From the NCBI GenBank assembly GCA_965655095.1, contig OZ296649.1:21700001-21764000 (forward strand): a DNA stretch of 64,000 bases, read 5' to 3'. This document shows positions 1 through 42,419 of the stretch, one piece after another (position 1 is the stretch's first letter; each line of letters begins with the position of its first letter). The DNA is from Haplodiscus bocki (lineage: Eukaryota). A program made the translations under genes and the position numbers. Under the pieces are notes generated by a model. That model searched no databases, was not told the DNA's origin, and saw only the letters and a program-made list of their open reading frames with translations.

Positions 1-885
1 GAAAATTACAGAACTACACACTGTTCTCTGATTTAAACAATCCCCATGGCTTGAAAATGTTTTTAACAAAACGCAGATAAAAGATTTTGAGCAAAAAGCA
101 AATTCGAAAAAATCTTTCCACAAAATAATGATTAATGCTTTCTATGCAAAACTCATAGAAGATTTAAGAAAACGTATGAGCCCTGATTTCATAGATAAAA
201 CGGATAAAGAAAAACTAATTGAGACACAATCAGAAACAACAGTTCAAGATAAAATTGGAGAATATGAAAAGATTAATTTTATTTCTTTTAATTTGGAAAA
301 CACTATTTTTACGACACTTATTTTTGTAGGATTTTGTATGTTAGAATTATCGGATTTTGTATTGTGTTTGTGGTGATTTTGTAAAATACTTCCTTATTTT
401 GGCGAAGATATTGTATAGTTACTTTATATCAATACGGATTCAATTGTATTTTCTTTTGCTCCAATTAAGAATTTATTGGATGATTTGAAACATTTTAGTA
501 AAGATTTAGACTTTAGTGAGATAGATTCACCACATGAACTAATTTCGGGAAAAAAAAGTAAAACGAAGAATGAAACCTGAATCATCTCCAGAAGATGAAA
601 TAGATGAAGTAGTGTTTTTATTGAGTAAGTATTGTAATAAAAAACCAACGAACTTAACTGAATCGAAACACAAAGGAGTACAATCACATATTACCTACAC
701 CTTAGAAGAAGCGAAGTTTTATTTAGAAAATAAATGAAACCAAATGTGGTGTTAATAAAACTTTTAGAAGTGAAAAACATGAATTTTTAATGGTAAAACG
801 ACCAAAGTTAGCTTCAAATACTTTCGATAATAAAAGATGCTATATCAATAAATTTGCAAGTATACCATGGAGTCATTGTGTATAT
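1..885 (+). pseudogene. pPolB C-terminal part, lineage 1 (runs off the window edge)
   Basis: FKQSPWL (~32-52); motif B-like HKIMINAFYAK..EDLRKR (~119-175); IFVGFCMLELS; motif C-like LYINTDS (~422-442); terminal FDNKRCY..SIPWSH. Confidence 0.9.
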
Positions 886-2204: not shown

Positions 2205-2960
2205 TATGCTAATGATTTTTTTAAACTTTATAAGGGCAAATAAACCAAGTGTATGAACTGTGATACCGTCAATAAATCCCTTAGCAGATCTGGATGTTAT
2301 GAACACATTAGATCAAATATCCTCTTACTAAAAACAAGAGGCTTAACAAGATGTGATATATGCAACAATGTTTAAACTGAAAATGGTCGACTGGTTTGTA
2401 AAAATTATGCAAATATTGTTGCACTGATATAAAGATATTTGAACGGGAAAACCGTATTACATCCGAAAACGGTCATGAAAACAAAAAAAAATTACTTCAA
2501 GAACAACCTCTCGATAATAAACGGAAGCTTTAACATTATTTTCTGATGTTTGCGATTTGACTTCGGAGGAAAAATATGGCGACGGCATTTAGAATCAAAT
2601 AAACATCTTCTTAAAACAGGTAACTTTATCAAAACTAAATGTGATACTTGTAGGTTTGATTCACCACAAAATTATCTCAAAAGGAATTTAAATGCAAACA
2701 GATACAAATACAATCTTCGTGAAAAAGAACATTATCTTCAAAAATATTAACCCCAACAAGCAAACAACTGTTCAGAAACAAAATGTGGAAGGTGCAATAA
2801 ATTTTTAAGAAGTGAAATAAGAGAAACCCTTAATCAATAAAAGAAACGCGGAGAAAAAAGTTCATCAAAGTATTTTTTAAGTGAAACTTGCAATATATTT
2901 GTTGAAGAATCAAATACTAAACACAAAAAACTTTAGCACACATAAGAAAATATAATGCAG
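2205..2960 (+). pseudogene. Array of C2H2-like (CxxC...HxxSxxH) zinc fingers upstream of, or fused to, pPolB
   Basis: CMNC..EHIRS, RCDIC, DVC..WRRHLESNKH, KCDTC, KCGRC, ETCN..KH. Confidence 0.7.
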
Positions 2961-5900
2961 AATAAACAACAAAACCAAATTCCAAAAGTGAAGAACCAAA
3001 TGAAAACGGGAAAGCAATTAAAATTGAAAACATAAAAAGAGCGGCTAGCACTGATTGTTCATTTGCTTACCACGAGAAACAGCACAACTTTTCAATCGAA
3101 TTTAAATCTTTAGCACCAGATTATGCTATTACATTTATCAAGATTTCCCAAAATGCAACATTTAACATGAATGATTTGAACAGAATACTTATAGAAACAA
3201 GTAGAACCTATGCAACAGTAAGTCACAAATAATATTTTAAATGCCCTGTATCCTTTTATGCTTTCTTTGAATAAAAAGGATATGATGTTAGACGTGATTA
3301 GTTTATTATTATTGCAACTGATTTTTACCTAAATACACCACAGGAAAGATTTGTATTCACCAATTGAAATTATTAAAAATAACATCCAACCAGAGTTACA
3401 ATCTATAATTGAAAATTTTGAGTAAAAGTAGTTCCGGATTTAGATTTGAAAGTCTTACTTTTGTGGTCAGAACGTATTCACAAACTGGAAAAAATTGGTG
3501 GAAGCAGTTACATTGATCTTCCTCATTACCGTAGATCAATTATTAACCCTCAAAATCATTATGATAGTAATTGTGCAATATGGTCAATCTTAAGCAAAGT
3601 TTCTTCAGAGGAACAATTGTATTTATACCTAGAAGATATGTAAAACATTTATTTTAATACAAGAAAAATACAGATTTCAGTGATGGATTTTAAATTAAAG
3701 ATATTCGCAAATTAGGAAGTTCGAAGAATTTCTGCAATAAAATCTTTGAACTTGATAATGCTAAAAATTTTTACGAAGGTGCTTTTAACCCAACATACAA
3801 CTCGATAAAAAAGAAACTATAAATCCTTTTGATTCATTGCTATACAAATAGCAATACTGTTTCAAAAAACAAACGCATGCTTTTGTCGGTTCACCAAACA
3901 GGACAAATTTATGTAGAAAATGTTTGTCATCCTATTCCACAGGAAGCTAAGTCTACACCAGGGATTCTGCTGAAACATGAACCATGTAAAATGAATCTTC
4001 CAGATGATAAATATTTTAAAATTACTATGTTTCGTTACAAACTAGTAGCATTACATTCTACAGAGTATGCAGACTTCGAATGCAATAATATTGCTATAAA
4101 CAAAACAAAATCGAACACCATATTCTTTACTGAGCAAAAACCTGTCACTTACGTTTTAGGCAAATTTTCCAAATTAGAAGAATCTCTTAAAATCTATATA
4201 TATTACAGACTTTGGTGGTGTATGTGTAAAATAATTTGTGAAATATATAACAAAATTACATAAAAACTTACTTCAGAAATATAGTCATACTAACTTCTTT
4301 TCGAAAATGACTGAAACAAAGTAAGGATTTTGATAAAGCTGATAAATGCTGGATATGTGAAAGGAACTTTGAAAAGATGAAGAAGCATTTTGTAAAAAAT
4401 ATAAAACATTTAATAATCCTAATGAAACAGTGAGCAATAACAAAAAACTGTCAAATGTAGAGGAGCATCATATCTTGTATGCAAATTGAAAATAAGATCA
4501 CCGTATTCACATTTTATGCCTATGGTTTTACATATTATTTCTAGGTATGATTCTGTTTTTTAATGACAACTAATTCCACAAAAACTTTTCAGAAAAAAAA
4601 ACGAACTTTAAGGTAATACCGAGAACAAGAGGAGAATATTTCACAGTTTTTCATGGTCATGTAATGTTCAAAAATTCCTAAAGTTTCAGGAATTTTCATT
4701 TAGGAAATTTAGTAAAAACATTGAAAGTTTCAGATATATATTTTTAAAAAACGTGTTTGGTGATCGGTGTGAAATTGTAAGAAGGAAAATGGGATACCAT
4801 ATGAAGCATATAAATCTATAGAAGTTTGCAGCAAAACTTTATCAGATCTCAAAGTAAAGATTATTCTTCATCATTGAAAGAAAACACCGGATCCATCTGA
4901 TACAAGCGAAAGATGTAAAAAATATTAGCTTAAAGCTGAAAAAGAATTTTTTATCTTTCTTAAAATATGTGATTTGTTAATATTAGCAGATGTTTTTACT
5001 GGATTTGTAATAGAATCATCTGAAACCTAAAAATGAAAACCATTATGTTTTGTGTCATCACCACGCTATACATATCAATCTGCATTAAAAATTACAATTC
5101 TCCAAAATGAATTTTCACAATCTGAAGATTTATTTCTACGTGTTTAAAATGCTTTACGAGAAGGTTCTTGCGGTGTTTGTGGACCTCGTTTTGTTGAAGG
5201 CAGTGAGAAAATTGTAATATTATGCGTAAAGGAAAAAAAATACATGGATGATGTATGTCCCAATGATTAGTTTCTATTGAAAAGAAATTTACAAAAATTT
5301 TTACAACAGAAGATGTTACAATAACACCAGAAGACTCCGATGTTGGATAGGCTGTAGATGTTAATCCAAAATCCCACGACAACATAAAAAAACAACATGC
5401 TTTCCACTTTGTTCGGAAAATTAGAAAGTGGATACAACATACTTCACAGACGTTTGTGAACAGCATTAAAGCAGCAGACTAAAAACCACGAAGAAAATTA
5501 GATTGCAAATGGACTGATAAATAAATGATTAATTTACCCAATAAAAACACCTAAAATTTTATGTTAACCACGGCACAGAAATTGTGAAAACAAACAAAAT
5601 TATGGTTTTAAAAGAAAAAGCAATTTTGAAATGATAATTGGATAAAAATACAAATTTTAGAACAAACGGCAAAAGCTGTGAATTTAGAGAAAAAATTCCG
5701 GTAGGTATGACCTGCAGCCTGTTTTTGTAAAAAAAAAAGGAGAATCCAGGAAAAAGAAAACAAACAAAAATTGTAACAAATTTTAAAAACTGTAAAAAAA
5801 GAGCAAAGTAATTTAACCTACAATGATAATACACAATATCCTTTTGAAGATGGTACTTCGCTTTGGAGCTGTACATTTCAGAAACAAAAGATTCTCCTGA

Positions 5901-6130
5901 ATAGGCCAATGGTAGTTCAATTTACTGTTTTATAACTGGCAAAAATATTTATTTATGAAAACTTTTATGATAAACCATAAGTATAATTGAGTGAAGAGTT
6001 TTTGCAATTCCAATACACTGATGCAGAATCAATTGCATAAGGTTTTGAGACGAGCGGCAAAGCCAGAAATTGAAAAACAAATTCACGAAACGTTTGATAT
6101 GTTTGATAACAGCAACCTAGAGACACAATT
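2960..6130 (+). pseudogene. pPolB lineage 2, copy 1 (N-terminus to just past motif C)
   Basis: GGSSYIDLP..IINPQNHYDSNCAIWSIL (~3497-3595), exonuclease YADFEC (~4066), KCWICE, CDLLILADVF, YGxCMSQ region, CxWTDK, QYTDAES (~6011). Confidence 0.9.
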
Positions 6131-6895
6131 TATTTACGAAATGAAAGAGAACTAGAGGATTCGAAACAAATAACAAAAAACAATGACAATTATATTGAAG
6201 ATGATAAAATTGAAAGTGATCTACTAAACCCTCTTTTTACACGTATTGTGAAAGAAAAAGGGACTTTTGTAAAAGAAAATTTATCTTAAATTGAATTTAT
6301 AAAGAGGTGCAAAAACTATTAGGAAAATAGCAAACGTCAGTAGTGTCAGATATAGTGTCGAACAATCAAATGAGGTAAAACGAGGTAAACCATCTTTTTA
6401 TATTCTGTTTTCCTTTTTTTCACCGCATAATGTAAAATCTGTTCTCAATTTCACACTTTTATTCAACAGAACACTTAAAAACATGCACAAATTCATGCCT
6501 TTTAGCAATTAATTGAAATAATGACACAAAAAACCCGGAAGAACGAGGAAAAAAAGACAAGGCTGGTTTTTTACATGTTTTGGTTGTTCAATACTATTTC
6601 TGACACTATTTGTAGACAAAAATTTGAACAAAAGACGTAGAAATCTGAATTTGTGTGTCCAAATCCGGTAAAATATTGATCACCGATGTTCGGGAGAAGA
6701 GAATATTTCAACAATAAATGCACAATTATTGTCAATTGCGATTAAAAATCAAATGTTTGTTCATCTTTTCTTTCATTTTAGAAATTAAAAAAGGTGTTTT
6801 TTTTTTAAAAAAAAAGGACTACCGTCAGAGTGCATGAGGATCTGTCCGCGTCACCAATAGTCGTAAGAAAACCTTAACAGTGTTCAGCTTCCTAA

Positions 6896-7070
6896 ATGTG
6901 AAAACAAGTCCTAATTGACAAATTCATCAAAACAATTTGTTCTAAACCTGCTAAGAAAAATTATGATACAATCAAAACTGTGGTCAAACACATTGAAAAC
7001 ACTTGGAGATTAGGTTTTTCAGATTTGGTAGAATATGGAACAAAAAATAATAAAGGTTTTAGATATATAA
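6896..7070 (+). pseudogene. Integrase N-terminal fragment
   Basis: DKFIKTICSKPAKKNYDTIKTVVKHIENTW..DLVEYGTKNNKGFRYI; near-identical (inverted) to 38735-38910. Confidence 0.85.
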
Positions 7071-7081
7071 ATTGATAGTAA

Positions 7082-7345
7082 TGTAAATTCATTACATGCA
7101 GCCTCCATTTTTCAAGAATAATTGAAGGTTTACAAACTGAAAGTTTTATTTTATTTTAGCCAGTTTCAATTCTAATGTCTCTTGTCGCTTTGTATGACTA
7201 TTTTTTTTACTTTATGTATTAGTTTTACTATCTCCAAAATTAGTGTTCCATTCTTGTTAGCGGGGATATTTCTAGAACGATCCATTTCAATTTGTAGAAA
7301 GTCACAATTCTTCATATCCATTTTTTCACGATTCACATTCACAAT
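7082..7345 (-). pseudogene. Minor capsid-like gene N-terminal fragment
   Basis: NKNGTLILEI..SHTKRQETLELK..EKWRLHVMNL resembles the starts of the genes at 15150 and 43000. Confidence 0.65.
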
Positions 7346-9320
7346 GGATGTGAAAAATCATTTGTTACATGTATAAGAGAAGTTGATGAAAGCTTACATC
7401 AAATATATAGTCGTACTGAATTTCCTTCAAAAATGACTGAAACAAAATGAAGAAGAATTCGATAAAGCTGACAAATGCTGGATGTGTGAAAAGAGCTTTG
7501 AAGAAAAGAAGAAGCATAATGTAAATATTACAAAAACATTCAATATTCCTGAAAAAAACAGTGAGCAATAATAAAAGTAAGGGATCGCCGAAAAAACATG
7601 AAAAATTCAAGGTGAGAGACCATGACCATTTAGCAGATAAACTCAAAGGAGCAGCATATGTTGTATGCAAATTGAAAATAAGATCACCGTTTTCACATTT
7701 TATGCTTACCGTTTTACATATTTTGTCTGGGTATGATTCTTTTTTTAATGACAACTAATTCGACAAAAATTTTTAAAGAAAACGAAATTTAATGTAATAC
7801 AAAATACAAGAACAGAAGAATTTACAGTTGTTCATGGTCATTTAAAGTTCATAGATTCTTAAAGTTTCAGGAATTTTCATTTAGCAAAATTAGTAAAAAC
7901 ATTAAAAGTTTCAGATTTTTCTTAAAAAAGGAGTGTTTGGTGATCGTTGGGAACTTGTAAAGAAGAAAATTGTATTCCCCTATGAAGCATATATATCTAC
8001 AGAAGTTTGCAGCAAACCTTTGTCAGATCTCAAAGTAGAGATGATTCTTCATCATTAAGAGAAAACAGCGGATCCAACTGATACAAACGAAATAAGTAAA
8101 AATTTTAAGCTTAAAGCTGGAGAAAGTATTTTTATCTTTTAAAAAGTATGTGATGTGCTTATATTAGCAGATGTTTTTACTAGATTTGTAATAGAATCAT
8201 CTGAAAGTTATATATCAAAACCATCAAGTTTTATATCATTACCAGGCTATACATATCAATCTGCATTTAAAATGACATTTTCCCAAAATAATTTTCACAA
8301 TCTGAAGATAAGTTTCTACCTGTTTAAAATGCTTTACGAGAAGGTTTTTGCGGTGTCTGTGGACCTCGTTATGTTAACCGAAGTGGGAAATTTGTAATGT
8401 TATGCATAGAGGAAAAAAATTTTTATGGTTGGTGTACATCGCAGTGTTTACTTCTAATTGAAAGTAAATTTATAAAAATTCTTAAAACAGAAGTTGTTTA
8501 AAAAACACCAGTAGACTCTGATAATGGATAGGCTGTAGACCTTAATCTCAAATCCCACGACAATATAAAAGAAACATGATGTTTTCCTATTTGTCCGAAA
8601 AATTAGAAAGTGGAGACAACATTCTTCACAGACTTCTGTGAACAGCATTAAACCAGCAGACTAAAAACCACAACGAAAATTAGATTGCGATTGGACTGAT
8701 AAATAAATGATTAGTTTACCCAATAAACAAACCTAAAAGTTTATGTTAACCATGGTACGGAAATTGTGAAAACAAACAAAATTATGGGTTTAAAAGGAAA
8801 ACGAAATTTGAAATTATCTATGAATATGAACACAAACTTTAGAGCAAAAGGCAAAAGCAATGAACATAGGGAAACCATTCCGGTAGGTATGACCTGCAGC
8901 CATTTTGATAAATGAGTGGAGAATGCACGAAAGAAAAAGAAAACAAGTGAAACTTGTAACAAAATTTAAAAATTGTAAAAACGAAGCAAAGTAAACTAAT
9001 TTGCAATGAATATACACAGTACCTTTTCAAAGATGGTACTCCAATTTGGAATTAAACATTTCATAAACAAACAAGTCTTTTTTTTAGGCCATTAATAATT
9101 GAATCTACTGTTTTATATTTAGCAAAGTTTTATATATATATGGAAACTTTTATGATAAATTACAGGCATAATTCGGCGAAGATAGCTTGCAATTCCATTA
9201 TGCTGATACAGAATCATTTGTATTAAGTTTTGAGACAAGCAAATTAGTCGGAAGTTTGTAAACTGGACAAAACAAATTGATACGTTTGATTTCAGTAACC
9301 TAAAGAAACACAAATTTTTC
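7345..9320 (+). pseudogene. pPolB lineage 2, copy 2 (endonuclease VII-like insert to motif C)
   Basis: KCWMCE, KVRDHDHLADKLKGAAYVVC, LHILSGYDS, FPYE, DVLILADVF..SLPGYTYQSA, CDWTDK, HYADTES. Confidence 0.9.
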
Positions 9321-9659
9321 ACAAAAAAATGACCTAGCTGATTCGAAACAAATAACAAAAAACTATGAAAATGACATTGGGGATGATAAAATTGGAAGTG
9401 ATCTACTAAACACTTTTCAAAGGTAAAGTGAAAGAACAAAACTTTTGAAACGGATGAAATGTCTAAAAATAAATCTATAAACAGATTCATTTACCTTTAG
9501 GAAAAAAACGTCAGTAGTCTCAGATACAGTGTTGAACAACCAAGGCAGGTAAAATGCCATTACTTATTTTTTACCGCATATTCTCACATATTTTCTGACT
9601 TTCAACCTTTTATTCAACATAACAATCTAAAAAACGCACGAATTCATGCATATCAGCAA

Positions 9660-11205
9660 TTGGTTTATTTATATTTTATGAACCATGTGATGTGCTGTCC
9701 TTAACAGTTCTTTTTTTGTTTTGTTAGAGAACCTTTGGAAACCTATGCTTTAAAGCCATTTCATTCTGTATCATTCCATTCAAGGCTTTACATATCAACG
9801 TGTGTTAAAAAGACAGAAATGAAAATTGAAATTTCACAAGCTAAAGAATTATTCTTACCTGTGAAAAAATTTATTCCAGGGGTTTTTTCAGGTTTTTGTG
9901 GACCTCGTTACTTTAAATGAAGTGGAAGTATTTTAAAAAAATACGTAGATGCATGCAAATATTCATATGGTTGGTGTTTATCGCAAAGTTTACTTTTTAT
10001 GGAAAATAAATTTACAAAGACTGTTACAACAGAAGATACTTCAAAAACACCAAAAGTTTCTGATATTGGATATGCTGTAGACGTTAATCTGAAATCCCAT
10101 CACAATATAAAAACACGAAGGACATATATTCCATTTTTTTCGAGAAATTACAAACTGGATACAACATTCTTAACAGATTTATAACAGCATTAAAACAACA
10201 GACTATGGACAACAAAGAAAATTGCTTTCCGATTGGATTGATAAAACCTAATGTTTTCCACATTTAGAAAAAAAAAATTTTATGTTTCTTGGCACGGAAG
10301 TTATGAAAACAAGTAAATTTATGAGTTTAAAACCAACCATGAAAGCATATTTACATATAAATACAAACTTAGGAGCAAGAAGCAAAGCCATCACATTTTG
10401 AGAAAAAAGTCCCAGAGGTATGACTTGCATCCTACTTTCGAAACTAATGGAGATCCCAAGAAAAAGAAAACATACAAAAATTTTATCAAGGTGTAAAAAA
10501 TTTAAAAACGAGCAAACTAATTTAACTTGCCAGGACTATACACGATATCCTTCAAGAAATGGTACTTCTTTTTGGATTCACACGCTTGATAGAGAAAAAA
10601 TACTATTTTGTAAGCCAATACTAATCGAATTTACTGAATTAGAAAAAGCATAGTTCTTTGTGTATTAAGCATTTTACGATAAACTGCAACCGTATTTCTG
10701 TGAAGATAGATTGCAATTGCATTATACGGACACAGACTCAGTTGTATCAAGTTTTGACACAAGCAACCTGATTACAGATTGAAAAATTCGGGAAACGAAA
10801 TTTGATATGTCTGATTTCAGCAACCGAAAGAAACACCGAGATTTATAAAACACAACAACTGAAAAAGTTTTTGGTAATTTTAAAAAAGAACCACCAAGTA
10901 CAATTGATGTTGAATAATTTTGTGCATTGAAAGCGAAAGATAATTGTTTCAAAACTAAACGTGAAAGTGAACGTATACAACTAAAGGAGGTATCAAAAGA
11001 AGCATTAAAAATTGTTAAATTTGATAGAGACTTGAATTTTTTGAATGATATTTTTTTCAGAAGATGAAAATTCAATTAACGCAACACATAGAAACAAAAA
11101 TAAAAATCATACATTGGAAATACAATCAACAAACGAAAAAAAACTTTGTGAATTTGATGATAAAAAGGAAATATATAAACGCAAAAGAGAGTGAGTCTTG
11201 AGGGA
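9660..11205 (+). pseudogene. pPolB lineage 2, copy 3 (exonuclease III to C-terminus)
   Basis: CDVL, CGPRY, YVDA..YGWCLSQ (motif A), DWIDK, KPILIEFTELEKA, HYTDTDS (~10720-10740), GNFKKE, CEFDDKK. Confidence 0.9.
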
Positions 11206-14529: not shown

Positions 14530-14925
14530 ATGACATTTATTGAAGTTTTTAAATTTTTTTTAAATTAAGAAAAGCCACATCAAAAGTGAATATAAAAGAA
14601 GTACTGAACAAAGAAGGATTGACTATGGGAATCTACATGAAAGACAGCGAATTTTCATTAAAAGTGGTATCTTTGCTTGACATTCAGTTGGACGGACACA
14701 ATGGATAGCATAAATAATTGAAAAAACTTTGATTATAACGAATGTCCACCACCAACATTATTTAGAACAAAATTGACTAATAAAAGAAATGAAGACTTTG
14801 CTTTTTTCAGCCTTCGAAATCCGAGAGAAAGCAAGTCCTTCTGCTGCTTATTGTATATGCATATTTTACTTAAAATAAATAATAAAAACGGATTGTAAAT
14901 CTGTTATATTATATAATATATTAGA
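14530..14925 (+). pseudogene. Adenain-like cysteine protease
   Basis: KATS..IKEVLNK..GIYMKDSEFS, GTQWIA (GTHWVA), FDYNECPPP (FDSxGxPP), AAYC. Confidence 0.75.
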
Positions 14926-14927
14926 TA

Positions 14928-15167
14928 ATGTCACAAAGAAAAATGAAAGTAGATAATTTTGTGATATACATTCGCTGCAAGATCGGTGCGCCAAACGCAC
15001 ATTTTATTGTAGCTGACGAGTATGAAATTAACAGTTCTCCAAAGAGGACCCGTCAATCAAAACGTTCACTAAATCAAAATCCTAAACACATTACAAAGAA
15101 AATGACTGGTGAAAGATTTAGAGGTTATCAAAAGAAGTTAAAAAAACAGATGAAAAAAAACTTATAA
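14928..15167 (+). pseudogene. Small basic protein (copies at 18926, 22919, 27250)
   Basis: K/R-rich 79 aa ORF between protease and minor capsid genes; a core-protein role is only a guess. Confidence 0.4.
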
Positions 15168-16175
15168 ATAAAAACAACACTGATACACTAATTGCTCAAA
15201 CAAACACAAAAACACAAAATATCCCAGAGTTCAAAATAACAAAATCAACGATTACTTTCAATTTAAACCCACCATCACAAACGGGAGTCGAAAAAAACGA
15301 TAGCTGTAACTAATTTAGAAGTATTGAACTGCGATTTCCAACATAACTTAACATATTGATGATTTTACAATCTATAGACCAGGATATTGGGAAAGTCCTG
15401 AAATGTTGAAAAACTAACAGAATTGTTAGAACAAAGAATTTCAAATCAAATTATATTACATGTGAAAGAGGCCAACAAAAGAAAATTAGAAATGAAAGTA
15501 GGAGTAAAAATTTATCAGCTATCAGACCTTAAAAAGTTTTCAAAAAGACGAGTTTTTCAAAGCTTCAGAAAATTTGAAATATATTGATCTTGCAGATATG
15601 GTGTTAGGAAGTTTCTGACATATAAGGAAAAGGAACATTTACAAGATAAAAAAGATATTGGTGCTGAATACGAAACTTCCTAAGTTCCAAAGAAAACATA
15701 GGAAGTAAGGGAAATGAGTAACACCTTAAAACCTGTTTTCACCAAAACTGTAAAAATTGAATTGAAAGCGATTGATTTTACAAACAAAACTGTTACGACA
15801 GAAGATACAAACAAAAACGATTTGTGAAAATTCAATGAAAAAAGTTTGTTCCATCAAGTTTCCAAACCTGAACATACTAAAAAACCTATACCAGCGAGAA
15901 TCCAGTTAACTTTAGTGAGAGTGACAAGGTTCATTTAAAATAAGTTAATATTGGTGTTAGTATTGTGAATGGAATTAGACAACCTATCTTTTAAGGCTGT
16001 GCGTTAGTTAAACCTCCCGGTCAAAGGATTAATAAAAGACCTAGGATAAAAGTTTACCAAAAAAACAAACAAAACTGTTTTGACTTCCATTATGTTTTAT
16101 GTAGAAAATGTTAGGAATAACAGAGTTACTTTCAATGGTTATACTTTGACTTTTATTATAATAATAACAAAACTT
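15150..16175 (+). pseudogene. Minor capsid (penton-like) gene 1 (copies ~19150-20170, ~23145-24165)
   Basis: N-terminal TDTLI.QT.TK.Q...EFK, AVTNLEV; C-terminal DKVHLK..SIVNGIRQPI..KPPG..IMFYVE..VTFNGYTLTF. Identity inferred from this motif pattern and gene context. Confidence 0.65.
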
Positions 16176-16229
16176 TTTTAATTGTGAATCTGTTTTGTGT
16201 AAAGTTAAAATTTTTAAAAACGAATCTAA

Positions 16230-17314
16230 ATGCTTATAAACATAAAAACAAAAACGAATGTTTTTTAATTTTTAGTTATAAAAACAATGATACACTTAAT
16301 CAACACACTCAAACAAAAGCACAAGGGATCTTGAAAAGTAAATTAGCAAAATCAAGACAGTCCTTCTCATTTGATATACCTCTCAAATTAAAAGGTGGTG
16401 AATGGATCTTAAATTCAACGAAGTTAGAAGTATATAACTAGTTTCGTTTTAAAAAACGAAAACAATAACTTTGAAATCATTAAACCAGTTGAGAAGAAAG
16501 AGAATTGTTAATCTATACATAGTTTAAAAAATGTCGTTGGAAAATTTTGTCCCGAACATCTTAAATATGAAGCATTAAGACCGGTCATTATTGAAAAGTT
16601 TTTCAAAAATTGAGTTTGATGATATAAACGTAATCAGAAAAATCTAACACTTAACGGAAGAAGGATTGGAATCTTTTTCAATTGGTAACAAAGCTGAAGA
16701 TTCAGTATACGATGAGTTTTTGATAGATTAGTAACAATGTGTTTTTCAAGACTTTGAGAGTTTTCTGAGAACAATGCGAATAGAAGAAAATGATAACACC
16801 TTCATATTACAAAATATAATTCTAATTGCGAGACTTATGAAAGGCCACCAGATACATATGAAGATAGTTATAATAAAAACACTTTAGATAGTCGCGCGGA
16901 AGCTAATGTTTCTATTAGCAGTATCACAATGAAATCACAATTAAAAACGAAGAAGAAGTTTTGGTTGTCGAAAAATCATTTTTTTTCAATACAATGCTAG
17001 GCCTTAGCCTGGAATGGGTTTATGAACCTAAAAATGAATATATTAGTCGAAACAAAATGAAGAAAACTACAAGAATTAAAATTCATATAAAATGTGATTG
17101 TAGAGACGTAACAGTGTTGAATGCTTTTCGAGAACCAACAGTTTATAGTTTTACTCCAAGTAAACCTCCTGTTGTTAAATTGAGTTCTCAGCTGGAGACA
17201 AAATTTAAAAAAAAACAATATGTTTTGTGTAGTATAGCGTTTGCTTTGGAAAATTATGACAGACGCGTGGTTTGTTTCAATGAAGAAACTTTGACCTTTA
17301 CTTTGTTTTCATAA
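16230..17314 (+). pseudogene. Minor capsid (penton-like) gene 2, paralog of gene 1 (copies ~20225-21310, ~24220-25303)
   Basis: DTLNQHTQTK.Q..FSFDIPL..EWILNSTKLEVYN; KIHIKCDC.DVTVLNAFREPTVYSF..KPP..FNEETLTFTL. Confidence 0.65.
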
Positions 17315-17330
17315 AAAACATATTTTATAA

Positions 17331-17725
17331 ATGAGCTAATAAGAACTGGAAATACTTTATTTGTGTTGGAGGGATGTTTCTCTCTATTACTAAATCTGTC
17401 ATTGGTGGGATCAATGAAACAGGTCAAAAAATTTTGTTTGGAAAATGTATACAATGTAATACAAAAAAATCAAGGAGTGTTAGTGATAAGACAATATGAA
17501 CTGAAGGAGTAAGTAAAGTCCTTAAAAACAAAGGGAAAACTTCTGCTAAGGCAGGTAAAAAATTGGCTGCAAATGTGGGGAAGACACCTGTAAAAGCATT
17601 GGAATTTAGGGCAAAAATGGGTAGTGCAGCCGCATATAAAAATAGAAAAGCAGTTTTATCTACAGTTCCAGATGTAATAAAGTTTAATCATCCTGCTGAA
17701 GGATTATATCAAAGAAAATTTGTAA
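17331..17725 (+). pseudogene. Small protein with CxxC ribbon and basic amphipathic region (copies 21327-21723, 25321-25716)
   Basis: ILFGKCIQCNTKKSRSVSDKT.*TEGVSKVLKNKGKTSAKAGKKLAANVGKTPVKALE..GSAAA..KAVLSTVPDVIKF. Confidence 0.55.
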
Positions 17726-17774
17726 AGTTAAAATATACAAAACAGTTTTATTGTCGCAAAAAAGTCGGCTACTA

Positions 17775-18275
17775 GGATATATCCATCGGCAGCATTAGAA
17801 CCAATTACAAATGTTGAAGAGGGATCAAAGAAGAAAATGTTTAATGTTAACAGCTTCAATATCCCTAATAACAATCTTGAAGGAAAGATCATCTAATTTA
17901 ACGATAGAAACAAAAAATCAAAAAAAAAATATAAAACCTATAAAGTTTTGCCTACAATATAAAAAACAGTTGATACTTTCGTCATTCTTGCTACAGCTTC
18001 AAGTTTCAAAACAGTATCAATCACTGACTCTTCTGTTTTTTTTTAGTGATGCCAATTTCAACTGGAACTGCCTGTGGATGAACTTTAACAAACAATGTAT
18101 TCTACGCAACAACTATGAATATATAGGATATTTGAAGGCTAATTGTAGGAGAACACAACAAACTAATAACTTTCCTGAAAAGTTTTCTAGGAAATGTTTA
18201 CATGATAATGTGATTGATAAAAAAGAAAACAACTCTCTATGTAAAAATTTTACGATATTTGTAATTGAAAACAGA
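17775..18275 (+). pseudogene. Putative membrane protein (copies ~21775-22265, ~25770-26270)
   Basis: YPSAALE.., KKSKKKYK, then hydrophobic hairpin TVDTFVILATASS..VMPISTGTACG, C-terminal CLHDNVIDKKE. Confidence 0.55.
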
Positions 18276-18284
18276 ATTGGTCTT

Positions 18285-18830
18285 TTTGATCCTCTTTTTT
18301 AAGGTAAAACATATCTTATATCGGAAAAACTGAAAGCATTTTTTGATAGAAAAGTTTTTTTTATGACCAGATCTCCTGAAAAATATGCTAATGATTATAT
18401 TACAGATGGAAAAATAGAGAACTAGGCGAATATCAGGGTGTTATTGTGGTTCTTGTTATTATAAAAGAATCTATAAAAAAACCATAGATTCCTTCTTCAC
18501 AAGAGGATGTCACAAAGTTCTGGATTTTTGTTTTTTGTCTCAGTTACTTTTGATCCACCAAAAAAAAAACAAAAAGGAACAACAGTAACATAAATATTCT
18601 GATCGAAACAACTTTAAAGGTTGTTGAACACATATATAGGGACATTCCAGGATTTGATATGAGTTATTTTGAATTCAAGGACCTTTGTAGAAAAGCATGG
18701 AAAAATGAGGAAGATAATTATCTCTATATGGATAGATCTAAAAAGAAAAGTGCAGGTAAGTTTTGTATTTGTAATGAAAGCAAACCAAACATGTGTATGG
18801 AGTGCGTTCCAGAAACAAATCGTTTTTATA
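18285..18830 (+). pseudogene. A32/FtsK-like packaging ATPase, 5'-deleted (unit 2 copy ~22280-22825)
   Basis: Decayed Walker A DPLF*GKT, TRSPEKY, FFTRGCH, LSQ, IYRDIPGFDMSYFEFKDLCRKAW. Confidence 0.8.
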
Positions 18831-21800
18831 TTATGTGTAATAAATACGATCAATTATTCAGTTTTACCTAAACTAAATAAGAAAAACGGATTGTAAAACT
18901 GTTATATTTTATAATACAATAGATAATGTCACATAGAAAAATGGAAGTAGATAATTTTGTGATAAACATTCGCTCCAAGAACGGTGCACCAAACGCACAT
19001 TTTTTTGGAGTTGACCAGCAGAAATTTAACAGTTTTCCAAAGAGGACCCCTCAATCCAAACGTTCACTAAATCAAAATTTTACACTTTTCACCAAGAAAG
19101 TGACTGGTAAATGATTTAGATTTTATCAGAACAAGTTAAAAAATAGAAGAATTACTACTTGTAAATAAAAACAACACTAATACACTAATTGCTCGAACAA
19201 ACACAAAAACACAAGAGATCTTAGAGTTCAACTTAACAAAATCATAGATTACTTTCAATTTACACCCTTCATTGCAAGCGGAGGCAAAAAAAACGATAGC
19301 TGTAACTAATTTAGAATTATTGTACTGCGATTTCCAACATAACTGAACATATTGATGATTTTACAATCTATAGACCAGGATATTGGGAAAGTCCTGAAAT
19401 TTTGAAAAACTAACAGAACTGTTAGAACAAAGAATTTCAAATCAATTTAAATTACATGTGAAAGAAGCCAACAAACGAAGATTAGAAATGAAAGTAGGAG
19501 TAAAAACTTATCAGCTATCAGAGCTTAAAGGCTTTTCAAAAAGACAAGTTTTTCAAAGCTTCAGAAAATTTGAAACATATTGGTCTTGGAGATATGGTGT
19601 TAGAAAGTTTCTGACAAATAAGGAAAAGGAACATTTACAAGATAAAAAAGATATTGGTGCTGAATACGAAACTTCCTAAGTTCCAAAGAAAACATAGGAA
19701 GTAAGGGAAATGAGTAACACCTTAAAACATATTTTCACCAGAACTGTAAATTTTGAATTGAAAGCGATTGATTTTACAAACAAAACTGTTATGACAGAAG
19801 ATACAAACGAAAACGATTTGTGAAAATTCAATGAAAAAAGTTTGTTCCATCAAGTTTCCAAACCTGAACATACTAAAAAACCTATACCAGCGAGAATCTT
19901 GTTAACTTTAGTGAGAGTGACAAGGTTCATTTGAAATGTGTTAATATTGGTGTTAGTATTGTGAATCGAAATAAACAACCTTTTTCTTAAGGCTTTGAGT
20001 TAGTTAAATACCCAGTCAAAAGATTAATAAAAGACCTAGGATAAAAGTTTACCAAAAAAACAAACACAACTGTTTTGCATTCCATTATGTTTTATGTAAA
20101 AAATGTTAGGAATAACAGAGTTACTTTCAATGGTTATACTTTGACTTTTAATATAATAATAACAAAAACTTCTTTAATTGTGAATCTGTTTTGTGTAAAG
20201 TTAAAATTTTTAAAAATGAATCTCAATGCTTATAAACCTAAGAACAAAAACGAAAATTTTGTTATGTTTAGTTACTAAAAACACTGATACACTTAATCAA
20301 CACACTCAAACAAAATCACAAGGGATCTTGGAAAACAGATTGGCAAAATCAAGACAGTCCTTCTCATTTCATATACATCTCAAACTAAAAGATGAAGAAT
20401 GGATCTTAAATTCAACGAAGTTAGAAGTATATAACTCTAGTTTCGTTTTAAAGAACGAAAACAATAAATTTGAATTATTTAAACCAGTTGAGAAGAAAGA
20501 AAATTGTTAATCTATACATAGTTTGAAAAGTGTCGTTGAAAAATTTTGTGCCGAGCATCTTAAATATGAAGCACTAAGACCGGTCAATATTGAAAAAATT
20601 TAAAAAGTTGTGTTTGATAACATAAACATAATCAGAAAAATCTTACACTTAACGGAAGAAGGATTGGAATCCTTTTCAATTGGTAACAAAGCTGAAGATT
20701 CAGTATTTGATGAATTTTTGATAGCTTACTAACAATGTGTTTTTCAAGATTTTTAGATTTTTCTGAGAACAATGCGAATAGAAGAAAACGAAAATCCCTT
20801 CCTATTACAAAATATAATTTTTATTTCGATAGTTTTGAGAGGCCACCAGATAAAAATGAATTTAGTTATAAGAAAACACTTTAGATAGTCGCGTGGAAGC
20901 TAATGTTTCTATTAGCACTATCACAATGAAATCACAAATTAGAAACGAAGAAGAAGTTTTGGTTCTCAAAAAATCATTTTTTTCAATACAATGCTAGGCT
21001 TTAGCCTAAAATGGGTTTATGAACCTAAAAGTGAATATATTAGTCGAAACAAAATGAAGAAAACTACAAGAGTTAAAATTCATATAAAATGTGATTGTAG
21101 AGACGTAACAGTGTTGAATGCTTTTCGAGAACCAACAGTTCATAGTTTTACTCCAAGTAAACTTCCTGTTGTTAAATTGAGTTCTGAGCTGGAGACAAAA
21201 TTTAAAAAAAACAATATGTTTTGTGTAGTATAACGTTTGCTTTGGAAAATTATGACAGACGCGTGGTTGATTTCAATGAAGAAACTTTGACTTTTACTTT
21301 GTTTTCATAAAAAACATTATTTAAAAATGAGCTAATAAGAACTGGAATTACTTTATTTCGTGTTGGAGGGAGATTTCTCTCTAGTACTAAATCTGTCATT
21401 GGTGGGATCAATGAAACAGGTCAAAAAATTTTGTTTGGAAAGTGTATACAATGTAATACAAAAAAAATCAAGGAGTGTTAGTGATAAGACAACATGAACT
21501 GAAGGAGTAAGTAAAATCCTTAAAAACAAAGGGAAAACTTCTGCTAAGGCAGGTAAAAAATTGGCTGCAAATGTGGGGAAGACACCTGTAAAAGCATTGG
21601 AATTTAGGGCAAAAATGGGTAGTGCAGCCGCATATAAAAATAGAAAAGCAGTTTTATCTACAGTTCCAGATGTAATAAAGTTTAATCATCCTGCTGAAGG
21701 ATTATATCAAAGAAAATTTGTAAAGTTAAAATATACAAAACAGTTTTATTGTCGCAAAAAAGTCGGCTACTAGGATATAACCATCGGCAGCATTAGAACC

Positions 21801-24800
21801 AATTACAAATGTTGAAGAGGGATCAAAGAAGAAAATGTTTAATATTAACAGCTTCAATAACCCTAATAACAATCTTGAAGGAAAGATCATCTAATTTAAC
21901 GATAGAAACAAAAATCAAAATAAAAATATAAAACCTTTAAAGTTTTACCTACAATATAAAAAACAGTTGATACTTTTGTTATTCTTGCTACAACTTCAAC
22001 TTTTAAAACACTATCAATCACTGACTCTTCTGTTTTTTAGTGATGCCATTTTCAACTGGAACTGCCTGTGGATGAACTTTAACAAACAATGTATTCTACG
22101 CAACAACTATGAATATATAGGATAATTGAAGGCTAATTGTAGGAGAACACAACAAACTAATAACTTTCCTGAAAAGTTTTCAAGGAAATGTTTACATGAT
22201 AATGTGATTGATAAAAAAGAAAAAAACTCTCTATGTAAAAATTTTCCGATATTTGTAATTGAAAACAGAATTGGTCTTTTTGATCCTCTTTTGTAAGATA
22301 AAACATATCTTATATCGGAGAAATTGAAAACATTTTTTGACAGAAATATTTTTTTTATAACCAGATCTCCTGAAAAATATACTAATGATTATATTACAGA
22401 TGAAAAAATAGAGAACTAGGCGAATATCAGGGTGTTATTGTGGTTCTTGTTATTCTAAAAGAATCTATCAAAAAACCATAGATTCCTTCTTCACAAGAGG
22501 ATGTCACAAAGTTCTGGATTTTTGTTTTTTGTCTCAGTTACTTCTGATCCACCAAAAAAAAACAAAAAGGAACAGCAGTAATATAAATATTCTGATCGAA
22601 ACAACTTTAAAGGTTGTTGAACACATATATAGGGACATTCCAGGGTTTGATATGAGTTATTTTGAAATCAAGGACCTTTGTAGATAAGCATGGAAAAATG
22701 AGGAAGATAATTATATCTATATGGATAGATCTAAAAAGAAAAGTGCAGGTAAGTTTTGTATTTGTAATGAAAGCAAACCAAACACGTTTATAGCGTGCAT
22801 TCCAGAAACAAATCTTTTTTATAGTATATCTAATAAATACGATCAATTAATCAGTTTTACCTAAACTAAATATGAAAAACGGATTGTAAATTTGTTATAT
22901 TTTATAATATAATAGATAATGTCACATAGAAAAATGGAAGTAGATAATTTTGTGATAAACATTCGCTCCAGGAACGGTGCACCAAACGCACATTTTTTTG
23001 GAGCTGACCAGTAGAAATTTAACAGTTCTCCAAAGAGGACCCCTCAATCCAAACGTTCACTAAATCAAAATTTTACACTTTTCACCAAGAAAGTGACTGG
23101 TAAATGATTTAGAGGTTATCAGAACAAGTTAAAAACTAGAAGAATTACTACTTGTAAATAAAAACAACACTAATACACTAATTGATCGAACAAACACAAA
23201 AACACAAGAGATCTTAGAGTTCAACTTAACAAAATCATAGATTACTTTCAATTTACACCCTTCATTGCAAGCGGAGGCAAAAAAAATGATAGCTGTACCT
23301 AATTTAGAATTATTGAACTGCGATTTCCAACATAACTGAACATAAGTTTGATTTTACAATCTATAGACCAGGATATTGGGGAAGTCCTGAAATTTTGAAA
23401 AACTAACAGAATTGTTAGAACAAAGAATTTCAAATCAATTTAAATTACATGTGAAAGAAGCCAACAAACGAGGATTAGAAATGAAAGTAGGAGTAAAAAC
23501 TTATCAGCTATCAGAGCTTAAAGACTTTTCAAAAAGACGAGTTTGTCAAAGCTTCAAAAAATATGAAACATATTGGTCTTGGAGATACGGTGTTAGAAAG
23601 TTTCTGACAAATAAGGAAAAGGAACATTTACAAGATAAAAAAGATATTGGTGCTGAATACGAAACTTCCTAAGTTCCAAAGAAAACATTGGAAGTAAGGG
23701 AAATGAGTAACACCTTAAAACCTATTTTCACCAGAACTGTAAATGTTGAATTGAAAGCGATTGATTTTACAAACAAAACTGTTATGACAGAAGATTCAAA
23801 CAAAAACGATTTGTGAAAATTCAATGAAAAAAGTTTGTTCCATCAAGTTTCCAAACCTGAACATACTAAAAAACCTATACCAGCGAGAATCCTGTTAACT
23901 TTAGTGAGAGTGACAAGGTTCATTTGAAATGTGTTAATATTGGTGTTAGTATTGTGAATCGAAATAAACAACCTATTTTTTAAGGCTTTGCGTTAGTTAA
24001 ACATCCCGGTCAAAAGATTAATAAAAGACCTAGGATAAAAAATTACCAAAAAAACAAACACAACTGTTTTGCATTCCATTATGTTTTATGTAAAAAATGT
24101 TAGGAATAACAGAGTTACTTTCAATGGTTATACTTTGACTTTTAATATAATAATAACAAAAACTTCTTTAATTGTGAATCTGTTTTGTGTGAAGTTAAAA
24201 TTTTTAAAAATGAATCTCAATGCTTATAAACCTAAAAACAAAAACGAAAATTTTGTTATTTTTAGTCACTAAAAACACTGATACACTTAATCAACACACT
24301 CAAACAAAATCACAAGGGATCTTGGAAAATAGATTGGCAAAATCAAGACAGTCCTTCTCATTTCATATACCTATCAAACTAAAAGATGAAGAATGGATCT
24401 TAAGTTCAACGAAGTTAGAAGTATATAACTCTAGTTTCGTTTTAAAGAACGAAAACAATAAATTTGAATTATTTAAACCAGTTGAGAAGAAAGAAAATTG
24501 TTAATCTATACATAGTTTGAAAAGTGTCGTTGAAAAATTTTGTGCCGAGCATCTTAAATATGAAGCACTAAGACCGGTCAATATTGAAAAAATTTAAAAA
24601 GTTGTGTTTGATAACATAAACATAATCAGAAAAATCTTACACTTAACGGAAGAAGGATTGGAATCCTTTTCAATTGGTAACAAAGCTGAAGATTCAGTAT
24701 TTGATGAATTTTTGATAGCTTACTAACAATGTGTTTTTCAAGATTTTTAGATTTTTCTGAGAACAATGCGAATAGAAGAAAACGAAAATCCCTTCCTATT

Positions 24801-26439
24801 ACAAAATATAATTTTTATTTCGATAGTTTTGAGAGGCCACCAGATAAAAATGAATTTAGTTATAAGAAAACACTTTAGATAGTCGCGTGGAAGCTAATGT
24901 TTCTATTAGCACTATCACAATGAAATCACAAATTAGAAACGAAGAAGAAGTTTTGGTTCTCGAAAAATCATTTTTTTCAATACAATGCTAGGCCTTAGCC
25001 TAAAATGGGTTTATGAACCTAAAAGTGAATATATTAGTCGAAACAAAATGAAGAAAACTACAAGAGTTAAAATTCATATAAAATGTGATTGTAGAGACGT
25101 AACAGTGTTGAATGCTTTTCGAGAACCAACAGTTCATAGTTTTACTCCAAGTAAACTTCCTGTTGTAAAATTGAGTTCTGAGCTGGAGACAAAATTTAAA
25201 AAAAACAATATGTTTTGTGTAGTATAACGTTTGCTTTGGAAAATTATGACAGACGTGTGGTTGATTTCAATGAAGAAACTTTGACCTTTACTTTGTTTTC
25301 ATAAAAAACATTATTTAAAAATGAGCTAATAAGAACTGGAATTACTTTATTTCGTGTTGGAGGGAGATTTCTCTCTAGTACTAAATCTGTCATTGGTGGG
25401 ATCACAGAAACAGGTCAAAAAATTTTGTTTGGAAAGTGTATACAATGTAATACAAAAAAAAATCAAGGAGTGTTAGTGATAAGACAATTTGAACTGAAGG
25501 AGTAAGTAGAGTCCTTAAAAACAAAGGGAAAACTTCTTCTAAGGCAGGTAAAAAATTGGCTGCAAATGTAATGAAGATTCCGAAAAGCAATGGAGATTAG
25601 GGCAAAAATGGGTAGTGCAGCCGCATCTAAAAATCGAAAAGCAGTTTTATCTACATTTCCAGATGTAAAAAAGTTTAATCATCCTGCTGAAGGATTATAT
25701 CATAGAAAACTTGTAAAATAAAAGTATACAAAACGTTTTTATTGTCGCAAAAAAGTCTGCTACTAGGATATATCCATCTGCAGAATTAGAACCAACTACA
25801 AATGTTGAAGAGAGATCAGAGAAGAAAATGTTTAATATTACCAGGTTCAATAACCCTAAGAACAACCTTGAAGAAAAGATCATCTAATTTAACGATGAAA
25901 ACAAGAAATCAAAATAAAAATATAAAACATATAAAGTTTTACCTACAATATAAAAAACAGTTGATACTTTCGTCATTCTTGCTACAGCTTCAAGTTTCAA
26001 AACAGTATCAATCACTGACTCTTCTGTTTTTTTTGTGATGCCAATTTCAACTGGAACTGCCTGTGGATCAACTTTAACAAACAATGCATTCTACGCAACA
26101 ACTATGAATATATAGGGTAATTGAAGGATAATTGTAGAACACAACAAACTAATAACTTTCCTGAAAAGTTTTTTAGGAAATGTTTACATGATAATGTGAT
26201 TGACAAAAAAGAAAACAACTCTCTATGTAAAAGTTTTACAATATTTGTAATTGAAAAAAAAATTTTTTTTTGAAAAGAAAGTTCTAAACAAATGTTTTCA
26301 TAGCAACAGCTAAGTAAAAAATAAACTTCGCTGGAATTAATGTAGCTCTCTAATTTTGAAACTAAGACAGAAAGTAAACCTAGAACTAAGGCTAGCACTT
26401 TTTATAGTTTTTAAAATTGACTTTCTATTTCTGTAAAGC

Positions 26440-27155
26440 AATAAAAATAACTTAGAAAGTGATAATTTCCATGCTAAAGTGAAACGTGTATGTGAAAACT
26501 GTTTTATAATTCAAAAAAATGTCAGTTTTGTGAAAATTTCCACTGCAGGATTTGGTTGGCAAAACATAAATGTCAGAAGAACAAGAATCTTAATGTTGGA
26601 ATTTTGATTTTTGATCCTCTTTTTTAAGGTAAAACATATCTTATATCGGAAAAACTGAAAAGTCATGTTGATGGAAATGTTTTTTTATATAACCAGATCT
26701 CCTGAAAAAAGTACTTATGATTATATTACAGATGAAAAAATAGAGAACTCGGTGAAAATTAAGGTGGTATTGTGGTTCTTGTGCTTATAAGATAATCTAA
26801 CCAAAAACCATAGATTCCTTCTTCACAAGAGGAAGTCACAAAGATCTGGAATTTTGTTTTTTGTCTCAGTCACTTTTGATCCACCAAAAAAAACAATAAG
26901 GAGCAACACTAATATAAATATTCTGATCGAAACAAAATTAAAGGTTGTTGAACACATAAATAGGGACATTCCAGGGTTTGATATGAGTTATTTTGAATTC
27001 AAGGAACTTTGTAGAGAAGCATGGAAATATGAGGAAGATATTTATCTCTATATGGATAGATCTGAAAAGAAAAGTGCAGGTAAGTTTTGTATTTGTAATG
27101 AAAGCAAACCAAACATGTTTATAGAGTGCATTCCAGAAACAATTCGTTTTTATAT
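26440..27155 (+). pseudogene. A32/FtsK-like packaging ATPase retaining its 5' region (unit 3)
   Basis: ILIFDPLF*GKT (26601-26636), FFTRGSH, FDPPKKTIRSNTNINIL, RDIPGFDMSYFEFKELCREAW. Confidence 0.82.
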
Positions 27156-27685
27156 TATGTCTAATAAATACGATCAATTATTCAGTTTTACCTAAACTAA
27201 ATAAGAAAAACGGATTGTAAATGTGTTATATTTTATAATATAATAGATAATGTCACATAGAAAAATGGAAGTAGATAATTTTGTGATCTACGCACATTTT
27301 TTTGGAGCTGACCAGTAGAAATTTAACAGTTCTCCAGAGAGGACCCCTCAATCCAAACGTTCACTAAATCAACATTTTACACTTTTCACCAAGAAAGTGA
27401 CTGGTAAATGATTTAGAGGTTATCAGAAGAAGTTAAAAACTAGAAGAATTACTACTTGTAAATGAAAACAACACTAATACACTAATTGCTCGAACAAACA
27501 CAAAAACACAAGAGATCTTAGAGTTCAACTTAACAAAATCAAAGATTACTTTCAATTTACACCCTTCATTGCAAGCGGAAGCAAGAAAAACGATAGCTGT
27601 AACTAATTTAGAATTATTGAACTGCGGTTTCCAACATAACTGAACATAAGTTTGATTTTACAATCTATAGACCAGGATATATAAT

Positions 27686-37500: not shown

Positions 37501-38040
37501 TAAAATACTCAAAACTAAATTATTTTTTCCTTTAGAAACTAAAACTTATAATTGGAAATCAATTACTTTCAGTTTAAGCAGTTTAGGCTTTCTTTAACAA
37601 TCAGTTTTTCTTCTTCATTCTCATTAAGAGTATATATTGGTGTCATTGTTTTATTTCTAGAAAGTTTAGTCCAATTGATTTCTTTTGTTGGTCCTAAACT
37701 TTGCACTTCGTTAACTTTTCTGATATATTTGGGTTACAGTTATCACAGAAACGATATATAATAGTTTTTTCTTTGTTTTGGTTATCAATATGAAATTTAG
37801 CTACTTTATGTTTTTCTGAGTTGCTTTCTTTAATGTATATGTTACAATAATCACATTTCTTTTGTTAAGAAAATTTGGATGACCTTCGTGACTTTTTTCT
37901 TCTGTCTTGATTAATTTGTTTGCATTGATTACACTTTCTTTTTGTACACGTTTTACGTTGATGTTTCTTTGAATTTATATGTCTATAAAAGTTTGGCTTT
38001 TCCTATTCTCTATCACAAATAGAACAGTGTTTCATGGTCA
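34600..38040 (-). pseudogene. Multi-zinc-finger accessory gene(s) directly downstream of the integrase
   Basis: CCICGSEY..NFYRHLKSK, KCDDC, CDYC, CKIC, CSCCNVYV..HHE*SGEH motifs. Confidence 0.55.
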
Positions 38041-38200
38041 TCTTTTTTTTTACTGTAATTCATTTAGTTTTAACTCTTTTAAAGAGACTATCGTTGTGTT
38101 ATTTCGTTAATGCTGTCTTTTCTTTAAAACTTCGTTTCAAGTTTCAGAAAAAGAGTCTAGATAGTAACTTGGGAATGTGTCGTCTATTTGTTTTGTTAAT
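35870..38200 (-). repeat. ~885 bp diverged tandem repeat (integrase tail plus zinc-finger gene start), about 3 units
   Basis: Homologous blocks start near 35871, 36757 and 37638; GAATCTAGACAGTAGCTTG-like motif at ~36380, ~37259, ~38154. Confidence 0.8.
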
Positions 38201-41901: not shown

Positions 41902-41903
41902 AG

Positions 41904-42238: not shown

Positions 42239-42239
42239 T

Positions 42240-42410: not shown

Positions 42411-42419
42411 AATCATTCC

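Follow-up and report, generated by a model that had tools for sequence, protein, structure and literature searches.

Duplications in which a donor of order A-B reappears elsewhere as B-A have been attributed to circular DNA in human (PMC7450558, PMC7188851), at tilapia vasa (PMC3245284) and at cattle KIT. In the published descriptions these cases also exhibit a short indel at the closing junction and a non-tandem position, features that are found at the locus reported here. The acceptors described there lack homology to the donor, which makes a circle the parsimonious explanation in those cases. The human lcr16a/NPIPB9 duplication through SVA-SVA recombination (PMC9132208) comes closer, since the copy is permuted, the donor ends are joined within it and reciprocal chimeric repeats flank it; it is interpreted in that report as a circle re-integrating. 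The architecture considered here, including re-integration by homeology, is therefore already published, and the Discussion of PMC9132208 still describes the entry of permuted duplications into genomes as an open question. Related precedents come from repair. In the aborted two-ended SDSA at Drosophila P{wa} (PMC8951532), where synthesis starts from broken ends, and in the TMEJ-closed tandem duplications of C. elegans (PMC7368036), kilobases are synthesized, closure is by end joining and templated inserts occur occasionally; the template in these accounts is the sister chromatid.

The locus lies in a window of 64,000 nt of Haplodiscus bocki (GCA_965655095.1, contig OZ296649.1, 21,700,001-21,764,000), which is the whole stretch of DNA analysed and to which all further coordinates refer. 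On the left, A (5510-7070), a filler J of 11 nt (7071-7081) and B (7082-8713), all on the forward strand, correspond to the inverted right-hand block B-A (41901-38735, reverse strand) with the halves swapped, over approximately 3.2 kb. The two blocks differ by 2 substitutions and 3 homopolymer indels across 3171 nt. More specifically, A equals the reverse complement of 40292-38735 with 1 substitution and 3 gap bases (2 homopolymer runs) in 1561 columns, and B that of 41901-40271 with 1 substitution and 1 gap base in 1632 columns. The arms are nearly equal in length (A 1558 nt, B 1631 nt). According to alignment and pPolB tblastn, A holds the C-terminal half of pPolB, a spacer and the first ~58 codons of a truncated integrase, and B holds a segment q of ~240 nt, an older junction near 7330 and then the middle part of pPolB. 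The preliminary description had reported an order flip, ~11 extra bases where A and B meet and a 22-bp direct repeat bounding the left block; alignment of both halves bears out the flip, the extra bases are the filler, and the 22-mer is found at 5510 and 8692 with a single reversed occurrence in the donor (40271-40292). Judged from the assembled sequence, the permuted 3.2-kb duplication is a real pattern. The copies are separated by an assembly gap of 177 N (28529-28705). No G4 motif was found at the donor ends or the acceptor site, and no repeat pairs the two donor ends beyond short matches at chance level. Relative to lcr16a/NPIPB9 as presented in PMC9132208, the duplication here comprises 3.2 kb of dead Polinton DNA and lies 30 kb from the donor at 99.9% identity, its junctions are all base-resolved, and a second junction lies at one donor end.

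Unlike the acceptors described for the human, tilapia and cattle cases, the acceptor here is a paralog in register with the donor. The left flank (B', 4219-5509, forward strand) is a decayed Polinton pPolB paralog aligned with donor B, identical to the donor at 1085 of 1281 aligned bases (84.7%), and its PolB remnant extends further upstream. The right flank (A', 8714-9661, forward strand) is in register with donor A at 731 of 939 identical bases (77.8%), and in tblastn with intact pPolB relatives A' and A match the same pPolB residues. By alignment and tblastn, the sequence switches from acceptor to donor in the 22-nt run at 5510-5531 and from donor back to acceptor in that at 8692-8713 (both forward strand), leaving reciprocal chimeric repeats at the two ends of the permuted copy, B'/A at 5510 and B/A' at 8713. 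The repeat is best read as an identical run common to pPolB paralogs of 78-85% identity, where acceptor and donor sequence switch in register. A target-site duplication was rejected because the donor, too, contains the 22-mer internally and the flanks run on in register. Nor is the 22-mer the longest run common to both paralogs, seven being longer (24-30 nt). Its flanks are 88.5% identical over 100 nt per side, a level that 3 of the 278 identical runs attain, and the switch site thus lies within the locally most similar region of the paralogs. Both switch points fall inside the one 22-nt run, with diagnostic mismatches directly adjoining and no conversion tract of donor or acceptor. The in-register flanks support the earlier proposal of a homology-directed step into a diverged PolB copy. 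The idea that 2960-5510 and 8713-9660 form one PolB haplotype holds in part: relative to a further copy, C, each flank groups with the donor as its sister (informative sites 113 versus 37/39 and 97 versus 56/48), but acceptor-donor identity falls from 86% to 76% near 8797, ~85 nt beyond the repeat. An older event of like kind at 9661/9665 found no support, copy C standing at ~70% from both paralogs on either side.

The filler at J has the look of a templated insert, probably assembled as two pieces out of 38734-38723, the 12 nt that follow the donor A end. When the 15 nt past that end are taken as template, two pieces account for 12 of the 13 bases at the junction (2/5956 and 23/5937 under two null models, for a statistic picked post hoc); tests with one piece (P 0.02-0.13) or a 25-nt window (74/5956, 59/5933) are weak. 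Polymerase theta inserts, as characterized in PMC5068794, are mostly primed within 10 nt of a breakpoint and from one flank. A copy from 41751 was discarded as an origin, its 8-mer match being at chance level, and so, less firmly, was native sequence upstream of B, into which a sensitive alignment enters by 7 nt and where by eye 4-5 of the 11 bases match two paralogs. No second or diverged copy of the J junction exists within the window, and the many older relatives of the 7075 junction that would speak against a recent event are accordingly absent there; the reading of J as an end-joining scar is supported.

The donor block (38735-41901, reverse strand, by alignment) contains the single 22-nt run, and both of its outer ends had been taken as native. 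For the A end this stands, since relatives of the rve integrase align across 38909-38301 on the right yet end at 7069 on the left. The integrase remnant continues through 38301-38734 (reverse strand; PF00665, rve), its first 12 nt being the likely filler template by sequence comparison, although to call it a full integrase was an overstatement, as its reading frame is broken. The B end, in contrast, has a junction of its own, j4 (41902-41903), identified from paralog alignments, which lies 1-2 nt from the end of the duplication and joins q to a block Y (41904-43805). The 100 nt at 41802-41901 match two paralogs (70/98, 72/97) that continue to match each other past the 41901 point (71/99), and 41902-42001 fails to align with them; 41904-42003 matches another block, 46829-46928 (88/100), whose upstream sequence is absent at 41904. 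The chance of the donor B end falling 1-2 nt from j4 is ~0.4-0.9%. This second junction had gone unnoticed in the preliminary description.

Polinton/Maverick elements carry a protein-primed PolB, an rve integrase and an A32-type ATPase, and remnants of all three are present here. The remnant of the protein-primed family B polymerase has 291 relatives at E<=0.001, mapped back by tblastn; among 16 PolB relatives scanned, 3 carry PF03175 and 5 match Endonuclease_7. For the retroviral-like integrase, 8 of 38 candidates qualified, all with PF00665 (rve), and for the A32-type packaging ATPase 75 of 85, most with PF04665. In difference from such elements, the genes here are all broken and the fragments shuffled, and self-comparisons of the window, whose DNA is heavily decayed, showed no pair of terminal inverted repeats. 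Direct scans of the fragments were empty: none of the 334 stop-to-stop frames taken into the Pfam scan (of 446 of at least 50 aa) rose above the curated cut-off, 16 frames read through with X gave no match, and a 77-aa PolB piece used in a word-based search yielded 0 of 12 candidates. Thus, the Polinton identity comes only via intact relatives. All DNA involved is broken, non-functional Polinton/Maverick sequence, no functional gene was created, and the element supplies the substrate only and not the enzymes.

The left and right copies have diverged at 2 of 3171 unique sites, or 0.063% (Poisson 95% 0.008-0.23%), and the remaining long paralogous blocks in the window are 69-95% identical, in agreement with the earlier view of a very recent event in otherwise ancient DNA. 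The comparison supports the right locus as donor and the left as acceptor. The only polarisable difference, that at 8508 and not that at 6844, has its derived state on the right, the left copy sharing its base with two outgroup paralogs; the left copy thus bears no sign of error-prone synthesis.

Our preferred reading, to which we assign a probability of roughly 40%, is a recent host DNA-repair event among Polinton/Maverick fragments, most likely one in which no free circle took part. In the left pPolB paralog, the 22-nt run would have suffered a double-strand break, after which each broken end would have invaded the inverted paralog, 30-35 kb distant, where its similarity is highest. One end would have copied A (~1.56 kb) and the other, running the opposite way, B (~1.63 kb). 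Re-annealing of the extended strands would have failed over 12-23% mismatch, and their 3' tails may have been joined by polymerase-theta-type end joining, with the very end of the A tail as source of the filler, to give B'-A-J-B-A' and an intact donor. The missing conversion tract would be the default outcome of two 3' ends extended from one break. The site in the best-matching region and the two-piece, flank-templated filler, as in polymerase theta inserts, count for this two-ended repair, as do the nearly equal arms (3% for a circle opened at a uniformly distributed point), although under independent tract lengths equal arms have a probability of 2-8% and are hardly likelier than under a circle. 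Two-ended invasion, kilobases of synthesis and alternative end joining as terminator are described for the fly germline (PMC8951532), and worm tandem duplications are explained by end joining of extended ends (PMC7368036). Against it, the fly precedent would be an analogy from gap repair on a sister chromatid with converging ends, whereas the template here would be an ectopic paralog of 78-89% identity, resulting in a permuted insertion, and no published case of exactly such an ectopic product came up in the literature listings searched. Annealing must also fail despite 77-89% complementarity of the extended strands, error-prone synthesis has left no sign in the left copy, and the filler statistics are weak or post hoc. 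The j4 coincidence points to a donor break, which is built into circle and tandem models and is extra here. A break in the template may be what ended the B copy at 41901, with j4 as its other product; that a single break at 41902 in the donor served both as end of the copied tract and as donor deletion junction, in the same germline event of circle-free two-ended ectopic repair, is unlikely, and the age of j4 would have to match.

Because the acceptor is homologous to the donor, circle-free routes are open and a circle is unnecessary. The circle model of the preliminary description keeps its direction, recency, end-joining scar and homology-directed step, but three routes lead to this sequence and nothing singles out the circle among them; we regard it as possible but doubtful. 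Breaks at 41901 and near 38723 in one chromatid would free B-A, end joining would close it into a 3.2-kb circle, which would enter the left paralog through a single crossover in the 22-nt run; if the 41901 break affected both sisters, repair on the inherited sister would produce j4, which makes a circle the most natural account of the end common with j4. The order flip, short filler and non-tandem position agree with published cases (PMC7450558, PMC7188851), chimeric-flank integration between homeologous SVA elements has been reported (PMC9132208), and the filler and site preference fit equally well. Among the marks of a circle set out in PMC7450558, the order flip and donor ends joined with a short indel (the 11-nt filler) are found here; that paper also looks for no donor-acceptor homology and for exclusion of tandem and inversion alternatives, but the flanks are 84.7% and 77.8% identical in register and two other threadings give the same adjacencies. 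The order flip is no proof of a circle when the acceptor is a paralog, and PMC7188851 cautions on same-chromosome pairs among many paralogs. Formation and ectopic crossover would be required in one cell lineage, the crossover leaving no visible conversion tract on either side and the circle opening nearly opposite J (3%). A circle 100% identical to its source would have used a site only ~89% identical; two-ended repair would need one initiating break and an ever-present template, where the circle would have to bypass its own locus. A tandem duplication at the donor (B-A-J-B-A), from which the acceptor copied A-J-B or which underwent inversion at the 22-nt run and a flip, seems quite unlikely; the flip, in perfect inverted repeats of 1.6 kb, could be biological or merely the path choice of the assembler. 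Tandem duplications of kilobase size whose junctions are templated are documented (PMC7368036), the three threadings yield identical adjacencies and copy number in a symbolic check, and the window holds further tandem duplications and a gap between the two copies. However, two or three separate events would be needed within 0.06% divergence, no tandem copy is left at the donor, and the inversion route also requires crossover without conversion. An artefact in which J stems from a chimeric read (for example a mate-pair fragment of 3 kb that had been circularised) and the assembler crossed between paralogs at the 22-mer is improbable. The block is near mate-pair size, 3.2 kb being a common one, the duplication is known from assembled sequence, homopolymer length accounts for 3 of the 5 sites that differ, and a scaffold gap intervenes at 28529-28705. 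Yet the copies differ by two substitutions, the left base at 8508 being common to two outgroup paralogs; seven longer runs (24-30 nt) between the same paralogs and 28 shared 23-mers elsewhere were left uncrossed; a tandem array of 4 kb nearby, which contains an exact match of 557 nt, was resolved; and random shearing is not expected to hit j4 or to yield a flank-templated filler.

If circle-free two-ended repair is true, published homeologous cases of circle re-integration would need re-reading. All biological rivals and the two other threadings share their junctions, and PCR across 5510, 7075 and 8713 is therefore expected to be positive under each. Because the duplication is young and every junction is resolved to the base, it may still be polymorphic and is directly testable.

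The inverted, circularly permuted duplication of 3.2 kb claimed in the preliminary description was borne out by self-comparison and an exact-match scan. Its left half A (5510-7070) is the reverse complement of 40292-38735 and its left half B (7082-8713) that of 41901-40271, with an assembly gap of 177 N between the left and right copies. The copies differ by two substitutions, at 6844 and 8508, in 3171 sites (0.063%) and by three homopolymer length changes; elsewhere in the window, long paralogous blocks share 69-95% identity on self-comparison. The 22-mer bounding the left block indeed occurs twice there and once on the right, and the 11-nt filler J (7071-7081) between A and B has no second copy, diverged or otherwise, within the window. 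The duplication is real, recent, permuted and placed by homology within dead Polinton DNA.

Pfam searches of 334 of the 446 open frames in the window, and of 16 X-read frames, gave nothing above cut-off. Searching with one X-read frame of B yielded 291 relatives, including one from a snail at 31% identity; among 16 scanned, three carry DNA_pol_B_2 and five match Endonuclease_7. For a frame at the A end the relatives were rve integrases (8 of 38 candidates), and for one in a 4-kb array A32-type ATPases (75 of 85). Protein-primed PolB (pPolB), integrase and ATPase together make up a set typical of Polintons/Mavericks. Every gene in the region is broken, and the region is a patchwork of Polinton fragments. 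Further pPolB remnants lie at 2-577 (+), 9665-11176 (+), 30862-32384 (-) and 43856-46843 (-), an integrase remnant at 914-1616 and an ATPase remnant at 49298-49911. Different Polinton lineages join abruptly at 9661-9665, 41640-41660 and 43805-43830.

Alignments to integrase relatives run through 38735 on the right and end at 7069 on the left; the right block is therefore the donor, confirming the proposed right-to-left direction of copying. The left flanks before (B', 4219-5509) and after (A', 8714-9661) the insert align with the donor in register (1085/1281 and 731/939 identical), and A and B match the same pPolB residues as A' and B', respectively. That these flanks form a single acceptor haplotype is partly supported by their grouping with the donor against a third copy, but their identity to the donor steps from 86% to 76% near 8797 (donor ~40190), away from the 22-nt repeat. 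The acceptor-donor pair is thus not uniform in age, and the step may date from an earlier exchange of sequence between these loci. Both sequence switches fall inside one 22-nt run with diagnostic mismatches directly outside. Longer runs are shared between acceptor and donor; the 100-nt flanks of this one are 88.5% identical, equalled by 3 of 278 runs; with 50-nt flanks, 7% of runs equal it. Because the paralogous flanks are in register, both switches share one run and the surroundings are similar, the 22-nt repeat is a recombination footprint and not a target-site duplication; the 22-mer is present in the donor too.

The native continuation claimed for the donor B end was not found; a second junction, j4, lies there. 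The terminal segment of B (41661-41901) matches two paralogs that run on together past 41901, whereas the donor switches at 41902-41903 into a block (41904-43805) that is a truncated relative of 46829-48648. With old joins estimated by us at 5-12 per 14 kb, the probability that a block end lies 2 nt or less from such a join is 0.4-0.9%. The coincidence may be fortuitous, or a single DNA end may have served twice, for example after a break that was replicated or where replication was persistently blocked. In worms such a persistent block produces matching breakpoints (PMC4654259), though here no G4 motif was found at the block ends or switch site. An old inverted repeat (arms ~200 nt, 69%) occupies two paralogous places, 1583-2103 and 46623-47159, and the block at 41904 starts inside its counterpart.

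Two-ended ectopic repair without a circle is preferred, at a probability of roughly two in five; this and the other weights are judgements. A single acceptor break would have had both ends extended on the paralog and the tails joined by end joining, which predicts coincident switch points with no free intermediate. Its steps are documented separately (PMC8951532, PMC7368036; background, PMC7407515). Against it, annealing has to fail, j4 requires an extra donor break, and arms as symmetrical as 1558 and 1631 nt are expected in 2-8% of cases under independent tracts. Of the 13 junction bases, 12 are accounted for by two overlapping pieces of the 12 nt immediately past the donor A end. For a two-piece statistic chosen post hoc, after inspection, nulls were 2/5956 and 23/5937 when the window was 15 nt, and 74/5956 and 59/5933 when it was 25 nt; a one-piece test gave only P of 0.02-0.13. 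This is suggestive of a filler templated there, resembling the polymerase theta inserts described in PMC5068794.

Of the circle proposed earlier, formed from the right block and crossed over into the left paralog, placement by homology stood, but the circle itself was not demonstrated. It fits j4 well, yet it needs two events, an 89% target chosen over the identical source, a crossover without conversion and an arm symmetry of 3% expectation, and is a tentative second choice. A tandem duplication that was later copied or inverted is rather unlikely; three threadings give the same adjacencies, so junction PCR cannot separate the models, and the assembled order hinges on phasing through 1.6 kb repeats. 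Assembly artefact is improbable because longer shared runs were left uncrossed, the two copies are not identical, and at 8508 the left one retains the outgroup base; unnamed routes are marginally less probable still. The order flip is the published mark of circle-mediated duplication (PMC7450558, PMC7188851, PMC3245284). Acceptors in the human circle set lack homology to the donor, unlike here, whereas lcr16a (PMC9132208) shows this same architecture, with re-integration between homeologous repeats and chimeric flanks. The present case is a further instance of a known architecture, adding base-level junctions, the shared end at j4 and clear tests. Literature searches found neither two-ended ectopic repair as the cause of such a duplication nor one in Polintons, weak absences given thin coverage of subscription journals.

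Elsewhere, a ~4 kb Polinton piece is repeated in tandem across 14864-27680, as three copies and a partial one at 91-95% identity. Each unit has an A32-type ATPase remnant, and copies 2 and 3 are identical over one 557-nt stretch (homogenisation is patchy). An old ~900-nt tandem repeat (35538-38220; three units, 63-69%) has Cys/His-rich frames. Across 52000-64000 the frames scanned gave no Pfam match above cut-off, GC rises from ~30% to 42%, and two repeats of 15-nt period lie at 54722-55007.
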